This document shows, one piece after another, positions 38,698 to 57,621 of a DNA stretch of 64,000 nt; position 1 is the first letter of the stretch, and each line of letters begins with the position of its first letter. The translations under genes were made by a program, and so were the position numbers. This DNA comes from Candidatus Hermodarchaeota archaeon (GTDB lineage Archaea; Asgardarchaeota; Hermodarchaeia; Hermodarchaeales; Hermodarchaeaceae): the NCBI GenBank assembly GCA_016839365.1, contig JAEOUH010000047.1:1-64000 (forward strand), written 5' to 3'. The notes beneath the pieces were generated by a model. The model was not told where the DNA came from. It was given only the letters and a program-made list of their open reading frames with translations, and did not search any database.

Positions 38698-40146
38698 ATG
38701 AAGGAAAAATTAAAGCAGCAAGACGAGTTTCGCTGGTGGCTTGACAAATCAGCGCGTCCTCGCATGAACGTCGGGGCAAAGATAATCGGTTCGAAAGAGA
38801 TCATCAATACCTTAGAGGACGCAGCTGTTGAGCAACTAACCAACGTAGCAACGCTTCCTGGTCCAATTGAACCGGTTCTGGCCATGCCTGACGCTCATTG
38901 GGGATATGGGCTTCCGATGGGAGCCGTTGGCGCTTTTGATGCTGAAGAGGGGATTATTTCCGCAGGGTGTACAGGTTTTGATATCAACTGTGGCGTCCGC
39001 CTCATTCGCACTAATCTTAGTGTTGAAGATGTCCAACCCAAGTTACAACAGCTAGTTGAGGAGCTATTTAATCGAGTTCCTGCGGGAGTCGGTTCTCAAG
39101 GTAAAATTCGATTAAGTGATAGTCAGTTTAGTGATGTTATTCGGTGGGGAGCTAAGTGGGCGATTGATAATGATCGGGGGGTACCAGCGGATTTAGCCCA
39201 TTGTGAGGAAGGAGGTTATATGGAGGGAGCCGCCATGCAGGCACCTCAAGTTAGTGAAAAGGCACGACGTCGCGGACGTCCACAACTTGGTACGCTTGGA
39301 GCAGGAAACCATTATCTAGAGGTTCAGAAGGTTGAGAAAATTTTTGATGAACCTGTTGCCAAAGTCTTTGGTCTGGAGAAAGGGCAAATAGTGGTGATGC
39401 TTCACTGTGGATCCCGTGGATTTGGCCATCAGATTGCAACCGATTATTTAGAGAGTATGGCTGTAGCAGTTAAGAAATATAACATATGGCTTCCAGATCA
39501 ACAACTCGTCTGTGCACCTGCAAACTCTCCTGAAGGGCAGGACTATTATGCTGCGATGAAGGCAGCAGTGAATTTTGCCTTTTGTAACAGACAGGTTATG
39601 ACCCATTGGATTCGACAAGGTTTTGAAGCGGTCTTTGGTCGAGATTGGGAATCGCTGGGGATGCACCTTGTTTATGACGTGACGCATAATATCTGCAAGT
39701 TCGAAACCCATGAGGTGAATGGATTGAAACGCGACATGTATTTGCATCGGAAAGGTGCGACGCGCGCGTTCGGGCCAGGCAACCCCAAAATCCCTGAAGA
39801 CTACCGATCAGTTGGTCAACCCGTCCTAATCGGTGGCTCAATGGGAACCGCATCCTATGTTCTAGTTGGCACAGAACAGGCAATGAAAGAAACCTTTGGA
39901 TCCACCTGTCATGGAGCAGGTCGAGCAATGTCTCGAAAAGCAGCGATTCGCAAGTATCATGGACGAGATATCAAAAACGCACTTGAAGCCAAAGGAAAAG
40001 TGGTTCGTTCCATGGGTACAAAGATACTAGCTGAAGAAGCGCCCAATGCCTACAAAGATGTCCATGTTGTTGTAGACTCAGTCCATGGCGCGGATATCTC
40101 ACGCAAGGTCGCAAGTCAGATACCATTGGGTGTTGTGAAAGGCTAG
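38698..40146 (+). CDS. rtcB: tRNA-splicing ligase RtcB
   Basis: MPDAHWGYG, GFDINCG, GTLGAGNHY, HRKGAT, HGAGR, EEAP.AYK. Confidence 0.96.
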   Translation: MKEKLKQQDEFRWWLDKSARPRMNVGAKIIGSKEIINTLEDAAVEQLTNVATLPGPIEPVLAMPDAHWGYGLPMGAVGAFDAEEGIISAGCTGFDINCGVRLIRTNLSVEDVQPKLQQLVEELFNRVPAGVGSQGKIRLSDSQFSDVIRWGAKWAIDNDRGVPADLAHCEEGGYMEGAAMQAPQVSEKARRRGRPQLGTLGAGNHYLEVQKVEKIFDEPVAKVFGLEKGQIVVMLHCGSRGFGHQIATDYLESMAVAVKKYNIWLPDQQLVCAPANSPEGQDYYAAMKAAVNFAFCNRQVMTHWIRQGFEAVFGRDWESLGMHLVYDVTHNICKFETHEVNGLKRDMYLHRKGATRAFGPGNPKIPEDYRSVGQPVLIGGSMGTASYVLVGTEQAMKETFGSTCHGAGRAMSRKAAIRKYHGRDIKNALEAKGKVVRSMGTKILAEEAPNAYKDVHVVVDSVHGADISRKVASQIPLGVVKG

Positions 40147-54931: not shown

Positions 54932-55522
54932 ATGGTAGAGGAAAACGAACAGCATTCTTCAGAAGAGGAGCGCCTTCCGCTTCCTGATGAGCCTATTCCA
55001 GCGAGATTAACTCGGGGAAAAGTAGTGGTTGAAGGTGAGTATGCGTCTGTGCTCTATGAGGCGGGGTATTATGGTACGATCAAGGGTGAGCAGAAATTAG
55101 AACTTGAGCCCGAAGAAGCGCTCTTATTGGCTCGGCGACAGCGTATAGCGGTGAGTCTGCCACAAAAGGAGGTGCTGGAATTTTCTTCGCTGCTGATGCG
55201 CTTATCAGAGGGGCAGCCGGGACTTTGGACTCGTTTTCTTGTATACAGTGATCTTCGAAGCCGAGGGTATGTAGTGCGGACGGGGTATGGGAAAGGATTG
55301 TTGTTCCGCGTATATCCAAGAGGAGCTAAGATCAATGAGGCAACTGCTCAGTATTTTGTTTGCGCGATTTCCGAGGGCTCTCCCTTGAAGGTGGAAGAGC
55401 TGGATGCGTTTAGCAAACAGGCGAAACGTAACCGGAAGAAGTTGATGCTTGCTGTGTTAGACCGGCAGGGGGAGACGACGTACTACCTTGTGTCTCCTGC
55501 TGATATTGTTGCGGAAAAATAG
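54932..55522 (+). CDS. endA: tRNA splicing endonuclease subunit (probably the structural, non-catalytic subunit)
   Basis: VYSDLRSRGYVV, FRVY, KKLMLAVLD..GETTYY; the catalytic His position appears to read TAQY. Confidence 0.85.
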   Translation: MVEENEQHSSEEERLPLPDEPIPARLTRGKVVVEGEYASVLYEAGYYGTIKGEQKLELEPEEALLLARRQRIAVSLPQKEVLEFSSLLMRLSEGQPGLWTRFLVYSDLRSRGYVVRTGYGKGLLFRVYPRGAKINEATAQYFVCAISEGSPLKVEELDAFSKQAKRNRKKLMLAVLDRQGETTYYLVSPADIVAEK

Positions 55523-56501: not shown

Positions 56502-56578
56502 TGGAGCCTCGGGCGGGATTTGAACCCGCGACCCTCGCCTTACCAAGGCGATGCGCTACCACGCTATGCCACCGAGGC
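56502..56578 (-). tRNA. tRNA-Thr(GGT), intronless
   Basis: Cloverleaf, anticodon arm TCGCC-TTGGTAA-GGCGA, encoded CCA. Confidence 0.93.
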
Positions 56579-56591
56579 TCAACAGGCTAAA

Positions 56592-56774
56592 TGGTGCCGA
56601 GGGCGGGCGTTTCGTGAAGCCCTACAGGCTTCAGTTCGATCCCGCGACCTCCAGATTTCTCCGGTGCGCCAGCAATCATCATATTTTGACCCTGGGGCAA
56701 AGCCCTATGAGTATCGCCCTGACATTTCAAGAATGTTCCAAGTCTGGCGCTCAACCAGGCTAAGCTACCTCGGC
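56592..56774 (-). tRNA. Elongator tRNA-Met(CAT) with three introns (30/31: 56713-56743; 37/38: 56657-56705; 59/60: 56609-56634)
   Basis: Three BHB motifs; the spliced product is a 77-nt GCCGAGG...CCAGA-CTCATAA-TCTGG...CCTCGGC-ACCA cloverleaf. Confidence 0.85.
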
Positions 56775-56944
56775 AGCACTAACCCACCGACCGTACCTTT
56801 TAAGCATTATTCTCAGGGCTTCCCCGATTCACAATTTTTCACACCTATTCACTAACACGAAGCAATTTTAAGCACCAAAACAACTTTGACACGCCACCAA
56901 CTGTGCGGGGCGTGTCCAAGGGTCACCGCCACAAAGACTAAGCC

Positions 56945-57055
56945 GCGGGGGTATCTCCCCCGATAGAGACCCCACAGCCAAGCTTGGTCAAAGGCGCAGG
57001 ACTTAAGATCCTGTCTCGTAGGAGTTCCCGGGTTCGAAGCCCGGCCCCCGCACCA
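56945..57055 (+). tRNA. tRNA-Leu(TAA) with intron at position 8/9 (56953-56975, 23 nt)
   Basis: BHB GGGG/CCCC, inner TCTC/GAGA; spliced 88-nt type II cloverleaf with CAGGA-CTTAAGA-TCCTG. Confidence 0.88.
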
Positions 57056-57156
57056 ATTTTCAAAAGATTTTTGTGCAATCTTGGAAGGTAGCGATTCGGA
57101 AAGCCACAAGCATCTTCCGAATCATTAATCAACAGTACTTGCACTAAATCAAATGA

Positions 57157-57485: not shown

Positions 57486-57621
57486 GGGCCGGTAGTCTAG
57501 TTATCCGGTTACAACTTGTGCTGGACTAGAGCGGTATGATGCGAGAAGGAAAACGGGTTCTGTTTTTCTCGCAAAGTTTGGGACCTCGTGGTCCCGAGTT
57601 CAAATCTCGGCCGGCCCACCA
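57486..57621 (+). tRNA. tRNA-Pro(TGG) with two non-canonical introns (D-loop 57503-57531; 30/31 57546-57575)
   Basis: BHB CTAG/CTAG and TGCG/CGCA; spliced 77-nt cloverleaf with CGAGG-TTTGGGA-CCTCG. Confidence 0.88.

Follow-up and report, generated by a model that had tools for sequence, protein, structure and literature searches.

Genes for tRNA that are interrupted by three introns are known from Thermoproteales (PMC4390854). Within the Asgard superphylum, the majority of tRNA genes in Atabeyarchaeia and in Freyarchaeia contain inserts, and a single gene can have as many as five (PMC11291895; bioRxiv 10.64898/2026.10.13.758758); these two reports neither name Hermodarchaeia nor treat the order of splicing or micro-exons. 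The order in which three introns leave one precursor was followed by RT-PCR in the red alga Cyanidioschyzon merolae, whose pre-tRNA-Ile(UAU) keeps the 37/38 intron until the end, after introns 1 and 3 have left in either order (PMC3728597). As far as it is summarised in PMC4090602, the work on archaeal pre-tRNA-Trp (Clouet d'Orval 2001; Singh 2004) describes a box C/D guide nested in the 37/38 intron.

Here, we analysed a tRNA-Met gene of a Hermodarchaeia-type Asgard archaeon. The window is a stretch of 64,000 nucleotides, and its genome (G000) is a MAG of 93 contigs that is 84% complete. Other G numbers denote the genomes of relatives, and L numbers denote loci. The search covered 40 relatives, 19 of which carry an orthologue of the gene.

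Exon and intron layout of the tRNA-Met gene

The locus is a genuine tRNA-Met(CAU) gene in four pieces, most probably that of the elongator. It occupies 183 nt of the minus strand (56774-56592), and its four exons are separated by three BHB introns (Table 1). The joined exons form a perfect 77-nt cloverleaf, which was called tRNA-Met(cat) by ARAGORN and was also the structure given by RNAfold (-34.9 kcal/mol). The unspliced genomic sequence was missed by both ARAGORN and the Rfam tRNA model, even at E values up to 10. Removal of the inserts thus restores the cloverleaf, and each junction shows the bulge and helix geometry of an archaeal BHB multi-intron tRNA gene. The parse and the spliced cloverleaf bear out the first-pass annotation, which had proposed a triple-intron tRNA-Met with exons of 31, 7, 22 and 17 nt and had placed the anticodon on the micro-exon ACTCATA. 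The latter point is carried by the relatives. Intron 1 is exactly absent in nine of them (G001, G011, G013, G008, G012 and all four species of the sister genus), and these read without interruption across 30/31 as ..CCAGACTCATA.., ..CCAGACTCATAGGG.. or ..GCGCCAGACTCATAGGG.., so the CAT reading of the anticodon is settled. All three introns are present in six species of the genus (G000, G007, G005, G002, G010 and G014). Taken together, the orthologues in 19 relatives, the exact absences of intron 1, the preserved motifs and the compensatory changes in intron 3 place the layout well beyond chance.

Exon 1, which ends in ..GAGCGCCAG, is unchanged in 13 of the 15 aligned orthologues, and the remaining two (G008 and G012) deviate at four D-arm columns. 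The triplet ACT is present at both ends of intron 1, and a micro-exon of 7, 6, 5 or 4 nt is possible from the sequence; given this repeat, the length of 7 nt follows from BHB geometry only. The CCA at the end of exon 4 is encoded here and is not encoded in the sister genus.

Table 1. Features of the tRNA-Met gene, its surroundings and the splicing genes of the same genome.
Feature	Position	Strand	Length and remarks
TATA-like TTAAAA	56798..56803	-	-29 to -24; last base 24 nt upstream of the mature 5' end
Exon 1	56744..56774	-	31 nt; acceptor 5' strand, D arm, positions 26-30
Intron 1	56713..56743	-	31 nt at 30/31; strict hBHBh' motif
Micro-exon ACTCATA	56706..56712	-	7 nt; positions 31-37, anticodon CAT
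Intron 2	56657..56705	-	49 nt at 37/38; relaxed BHB
CUGGCGC in intron 2	56666..56672	-	conserved; perfect complement of exon-1 positions 24-30
Exon 3	56635..56656	-	22 nt; positions 38-59, A54 in the T loop
Intron 3	56609..56634	-	26 nt at 59/60; BHB with a 7-bp inner helix
Exon 4	56592..56608	-	17 nt; position 60, T-stem and acceptor 3' strands, A73, encoded CCA
tRNA-Thr(GGU)	56502..56578	-	downstream neighbour on the same strand after a 13-nt gap; a T run follows
EndA paralogue without the catalytic His	54932..55522	+	196 aa; PF01974, structural beta-like subunit
Catalytic EndA alpha subunit	C43:37410-37664		186 aa; PF01974, Y/H/K; outside the window
RtcB RNA ligase	38698..40146	+	in the window

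The TATA-like element lies within a conserved AATGCTTAAAAGGTA block, which is also found upstream of the gene in G008 and G012. The arrangement of tRNA-Met followed by tRNA-Thr(GGU) is kept in both genera, and the two genes probably form a dicistron. A further tRNA gene, a hidden class II tRNA-Leu(TAA), is located at 56944-57056 (+), divergent from tRNA-Met. It reads GCGGGGG-TA, then an insert of ~23 nt, then AGCCAAGC..., and it was missed by ARAGORN and remained below the Rfam cut-off with 27.3 bits. In the 2.2 Mb of G000, the Rfam tRNA model found only 23 genes above the cut-off, so that multiple introns probably conceal a large part of the tRNA genes.

G000 encodes two PF01974 proteins, i.e., two EndA-family subunits, as well as RtcB. 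The combination of a catalytic and a His-less subunit is the pattern of the heteromeric EndA with broad specificity (PMC6379350), and the type of its subunits suggests that the pair would accept relaxed motifs. The genes for the His-less EndA and for RtcB both sit in the window, amid a cluster of intron-bearing tRNA genes.

BHB motifs and the predicted order of splicing

The motif of intron 1, TGAG CGCC AG↓A ... GGCG AT↓A CTCA, is a strict hBHBh' with the outer helix TGAG/CTCA (h), the central helix CGCC/GGCG (H), the bulges AG↓A and AT↓A, all four central pairs and flanking helices of 4 bp and 2 bp. The same 30/31 motif was found in 14 distinct tRNA-Met genes of the Hermod, Atabeyarchaeia, Nitrosopumilales and Bathyarchaeia lineages. 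The intron bodies of these genes are unrelated (14-40 nt), and one pair of the motif covaries among them (CGCC/GGCG vs TGCC/GGCA). Position 30/31 thus receives introns recurrently in tRNA-Met, owing to the complementarity of the D-stem GAG and the anticodon-loop CUC.

The motif of intron 2 reads CCAGA CUCA UA↓G ... GGAG AA↓A UCUGG. In the case of G000, its central helix has three pairs (CUC/GAG) and an A x G mismatch, which places it in the relaxed class (3/4); the helix is perfect (TGAG/UGAG) in G017 (L015), G008 (L011) and G012 (L012). The motif of intron 3, GCGGG AUCG AA↓C ... CGAA AC↓G CCCGC, also has three of the four central pairs in G000 and all four in some relatives, and compensatory changes were observed at five of the seven pairs of its inner helix. 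Motifs 2 and 3 are preserved in 13 orthologues. Across the motifs, 95-97% of the cells are paired, vs 30-49% when the partners are slid. Since the helices of motifs 1 and 2 are invariant within the family, covariation gives no support there, and the support comes from the comparison across lineages.

Both helices at 30/31 had been named in the first-pass annotation, together with a second use of CTCA in the 37/38 motif. The helices exist as described, and the double use was confirmed, with CUCA taking part in the outer helix of the intron-1 motif and in the central helix of the intron-2 motif.

The order of splicing was assessed with constrained ensemble energies for the six intron-1-bearing orthologues, using protein-free nearest-neighbour parameters at 37 C. 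In the full precursor, formation of motif 1 cost +2.7 kcal/mol in G000 (+0.1 to +2.7 across the six) and that of motif 3 cost +1.0 kcal/mol (+1.0 to +2.3), vs +16.5 kcal/mol (+13.8 to +17.9) for motif 2. After removal of intron 1, motif 2 cost +5.2 kcal/mol in G000 and +4.7 to +7.5 kcal/mol across the six. The helices of the intron-1 motif belong to the predicted best fold; the intron-2 motif is still not part of it after intron 1 has been removed.

We propose that a primary transcript, probably together with tRNA-Thr(GGU), would start from the TATA-like box. Introns 1 and 3, with motifs near the most stable fold, would be cut at once, in either order. Intron 2 would most likely leave last, because its motif needs the anticodon stem, which is split by intron 1 between G30 and A31, and because the CUCA of the 7-nt exon is held by the intron-1 motif. 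EndA, with its catalytic and His-less subunits, and RtcB are expected to remove all three introns. As the 37/38 motif pairs CTC(A) with (G)GAG and CUCA is also part of motif 1, the two motifs cannot hold CUCA simultaneously; the 7-nt exon should therefore not be cut on both sides at one time in one molecule, and this should protect it from loss. The predicted order fits a model of nested-intron processing that Tocchini-Valentini reportedly put forward in 2009. We consider the explanation as a whole, that is a tRNA-Met(CAU) with three introns removed by EndA and RtcB and with intron 2 likely the last to go, to be highly probable.

The order is predicted as a strong preference and not as a logical necessity. 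The first-pass annotation had called it obligatory. The energies favour removal of introns 1 and 3 before intron 2, as it had expected, but "obligatory" is too strong, since motif 1 can still be formed after removal of intron 2 (+3.1 to +6.0 kcal/mol in the six orthologues) and a fixed order is thus not forced. This cost is similar to that of motif 2 after removal of intron 1, which speaks for an alternative without any fixed order, in which EndA would cut whichever motif forms, intron 1 or intron 2 could leave first, and the mutual exclusion would bar simultaneous cutting only. The acceptance of relaxed motifs by the broad-specificity (alpha-beta)2 EndA (PMC6379350) is in line with it. However, motif 2 of the full precursor is dearer than motif 1 by 11 to 18 kcal/mol in all six orthologues, its outer helix is broken up by intron 1, and the 37/38 intron is the last to be lost in the red alga (PMC3728597). 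We regard splicing without a fixed order as possible, though unlikely, and prefer the order in which intron 2 leaves last.

Contigs at the locus from four RNA libraries came only from relatives that are ~91% alike, and they contained no splice joints. They cover tRNA-Thr, exon 4, intron 3, exon 3 and a part of intron 2 in unspliced form. Three libraries held only a small share of the stretch, and one run gave nothing.

Intron 2 is the best conserved of the three introns, with a mean identity of 0.89 vs 0.74 for intron 1 and 0.71 for intron 3. Between G000 and G007 it is identical at 49 of 49 positions, vs 25 of 32 for intron 1. It contains GGGC-NNN-GCCCCAGGGUCA, a C-box-like AUGAUGA (56676-56682) and the antisense block CUGGCGC, whose complementarity to exon 1 has a p of about 0.02-0.05 per sequence against shuffles. 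The pairing of CUGGCGC, together with CCGGA/UCUGG, is the predicted best fold once intron 1 is removed. A GGGTCAGA...GAG block is common to intron 2 and to the tRNA-Met 37/38 introns of Atabeyarchaeia and Asgardarchaeum, which suggests that these introns are homologous. One reading of the antisense pairing is that the anticodon stem would be covered on both strands by CUGGCGC and CCGGA, as a built-in timer that would keep 37/38 shut until intron 1 is excised and the nick is sealed, so that the 7-nt anticodon exon would never be released; the resulting intermediate, without intron 1 but with introns 2 and 3, would then be abundant and would have been the template for the repeated erasure of intron 1 in sister species. 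We hold this reading to be improbable.

The antisense property was compared with dinucleotide shuffles in 28 distinct 37/38 introns of tRNA-Met, some of which (L020, L023) were mis-parsed by the regular expression. Antisense to the 5' half was nominally significant only in the Hermod family, in Atabey-1-type genes and in one Nanoarchaeota gene. Given the mis-parsed introns, we make no claim of a general rule that the 37/38 introns of tRNA-Met carry such antisense. RNAduplex of the 5' half with intron 2 gave many GC-rich alternatives (CCUGG/CCAGG, GGGC/GCGCC) and is too promiscuous to interpret.

A reading of intron 2 as a box C/D guide was rejected. AUGAUGA is present, yet the box position reads CGGA and not the CUGA of a D box, and the second genus has a degenerate C box. 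Orthologues also disagree on the target position: counting by the fifth-nucleotide rule leads to different targets depending on whether an AC insertion is present. No Rfam C/D match to intron 2 was obtained up to E = 10. The 37/38 introns of three DPANN tRNA-Met orthologues (L027, L029 and L051) carry UGAUGA and CUGA boxes. The antisense of L027, read by hand, places C34 five nt upstream of the CUGA box, and a similar stretch occurs in L029; the arrangement resembles that of a guide, carried in the intron, that would direct ribose methylation to the wobble base.

Identity and integrity of the gene

Initiator tRNA is marked by A1-U72 and three G-C pairs in the anticodon stem, which are absent here. 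The tRNA-Met has G1-C72 and the anticodon stem CCAGA/UCUGG, and an initiator is therefore excluded. The initiator is encoded by a separate gene (C76:8085-8162) with A1-U72 and GGG/CCC. No second locus covering all exons was found in G000, which is 84% complete, so that a second tRNA-Met gene is possible. Two other ARAGORN calls were set aside. The other "Met cat" call, at C15:33985-34130 (-), misidentifies a multi-intron gene whose loop reads CTTATA, and the "Leu gag" call at C85:24947-25059 (+) corresponds to a tRNA-Phe(GAA) that has an insert in the D loop and the same acceptor stem as tRNA-Met.

Archaeal tRNA-Ile2 genes also carry a CAT anticodon and are commonly mis-called as Met. On this general ground, the gene could encode a tRNA-Ile2, with C34 modified to agmatidine to read AUA, instead of an elongator tRNA-Met. 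TiaS (PF08489), however, was not found in G000, where at 84% completeness its absence is not proven, and it was detected in the control archaea. The "cat" gene of C15 actually holds CTTATA, and G000 has no other candidate for the elongator tRNA-Met. Ribose methylation of C34 is known for elongator tRNA-Met, and the intron antisense of the DPANN orthologues puts C34 five nt before the CUGA box. We consider a tRNA-Ile2 very unlikely and retain the elongator reading.

The T loop of the gene (GGGATCGAA) carries A54 (position 54 = 56639) in G000 and G007 and T54 in all 13 other orthologues; A54 is unusual for an elongator tRNA. In the same two genomes, the strand of the intron-3 central helix at 56611-56614 has changed from CGGA to CGAA, and the neighbouring U55-G has become U55-A. 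The replacement of the near-universal U54 and the incompleteness of the genome (84%) could be taken to mean that the gene, with its three introns and A54, is a decaying pseudogene and that Met is decoded by an unassembled copy. Against this, the same state is common to two species, and the G-to-A change in intron 3 restores pairing beside A54. All exon positions except 54 are identical to those of the twelve orthologues with the same form of the D arm (G008 and G012 are set apart by the four D-arm columns), all three motifs are intact, and the promoter block and synteny are conserved. A pseudogene is in our view highly improbable.

The first-pass annotation had also proposed that the beginning of intron 1 places a decoy loop, CTTGGA, where the anticodon would be, with TGG as the result of skipping the micro-exon. 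CTTGGA is present (56742-56737), but the proposal did not stand up to comparison: the triplet at this place in the six intron-1 bearers is TGG, TGT, AGT (three times) and TGC. Conservation at the 5' end of intron 1 is limited to ACT, whose bases serve as the third base of the bulge and in the first two inner-helix pairs. The alternative motif, which leaves the anticodon stem intact and has CUU/GAG as its central helix, costs +9.7 kcal/mol in the full precursor of G000. It is thus cheaper than the true motif 2 and ~7 kcal/mol dearer than motif 1, whose cleavage removes it. There is no evidence of function for the decoy, which may at most cause rare mis-splicing in three of the six species.

A tRNA with a UGG anticodon, built from exon 1 through ACTTGGA with an 80-nt canonical intron and the 59/60 intron, or arising as a by-product of skipping the micro-exon (diagnostic junction ..CCAGACUUGGAAUCUGG..), is extremely improbable and, as the main product, is ruled out by the nine orthologues that lack these 31 nt and read CTCATA directly: CCAG-ACTTGGA and the later ATCTGG do mimic an anticodon arm, and the alternative motif has an unbroken 5-bp outer helix and is 0.7 to 8.4 kcal/mol better in the full precursor than the true intron-2 motif (six orthologues; 6.8 in G000), but it has no inner helix and only 2-3 central pairs, and the product would carry A37 vs G37 in the true tRNA-Pro(UGG) 700 bp away. 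The latter gene, at 57486-57621 (+), was called tRNA-Ser(gct) with one intron by ARAGORN; by eye it is tRNA-Pro(TGG) with G37 and with inserts in the D loop and in the anticodon stem.

Turnover of intron 1 and comparison with known systems

Introns 2 and 3 are common to both genera, and intron 1 is a variable addition within the genus. The RpoB tree shows three clades in the genus, each with bearers and non-bearers of intron 1. Two discordant sister groupings have 100/100 support, namely the pair G010 (with intron 1) and G013 (without it) and the clade of G005 (with) and G001 (without). The RpoB branches within them are shorter than 0.01 substitutions per site, and the sister species differ solely in the exact presence or absence of an intron of 31-32 nt. 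The intron-1 sequences can be aligned in five species, and that of G014 is divergent. The pattern points to one gain of intron 1 in the genus with several exact losses afterwards, or to allele exchange. G008 (L011) and G012 (L012) share a D-arm variant allele (GGTTGCCTAGCCTGGTAGGGC), yet they belong to different RpoB clades, which favours some allele exchange. The continual turnover of tRNA introns described for other Asgard classes (bioRxiv 10.64898/2026.10.13.758758) matches this pattern.

As regards annotation, the only elongator tRNA-Met found in G000 was recovered where ARAGORN and the Rfam tRNA model fail. The trait of heavily interrupted tRNA genes, seen in Atabeyarchaeia and Jordiarchaeia, is extended to Hermodarchaeia. 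The discordant sister species are good material for the question of how introns come and go. With two motifs that share four nucleotides, the 183-nt natural RNA is also a compact substrate for the question of whether RNA folding alone sets the order of splicing.

Compared with the pre-tRNA-Trp intron, as far as the latter is described in the citing paper, intron 2 is likewise a 37/38 intron complementary to its own tRNA, with AUGAUGA and a 7-nt antisense block, and differs in that it has neither a CUGA D box nor an Rfam C/D match. The C. merolae gene (PMC3728597) resembles the present one in having introns on the 5' side (D stem), at 37/38 and in the T loop, and its order of splicing matches our energy ranking. 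It belongs to a eukaryotic nucleus, however, and its motifs can fold independently of one another, in contrast to the two motifs with a common strand in our gene. The genes of Thermoproteales differ in phylum and in the tRNA concerned. Like ours, they contain as many as three BHB introns, placed at both canonical and non-canonical positions, and escape the standard finders; they also depend on a broad-specificity heteromeric EndA and have a last intron whose motif is expected only after the others have been removed. The overlap of motifs on a 4-nt exon segment and the polymorphism of intron 1 between sister species set the Hermod gene apart from them. The Atabeyarchaeia belong to the same superphylum, and most of their tRNA genes carry several introns, which have been gained and turned over repeatedly. 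In both complete Atabeyarchaeia genomes, tRNA-Met has the same 30/31 and 37/38 layout around ACTCATA(A). Its intron 1 shows no sequence likeness to that of the Hermod genus. The layout described here is real and of a type already known in archaea, and it is a clean example that leaves the current understanding unchanged. What is modestly new is the presence and absence of intron 1 between sister species, and an intron 2 that is unusually conserved and carries an antisense block.
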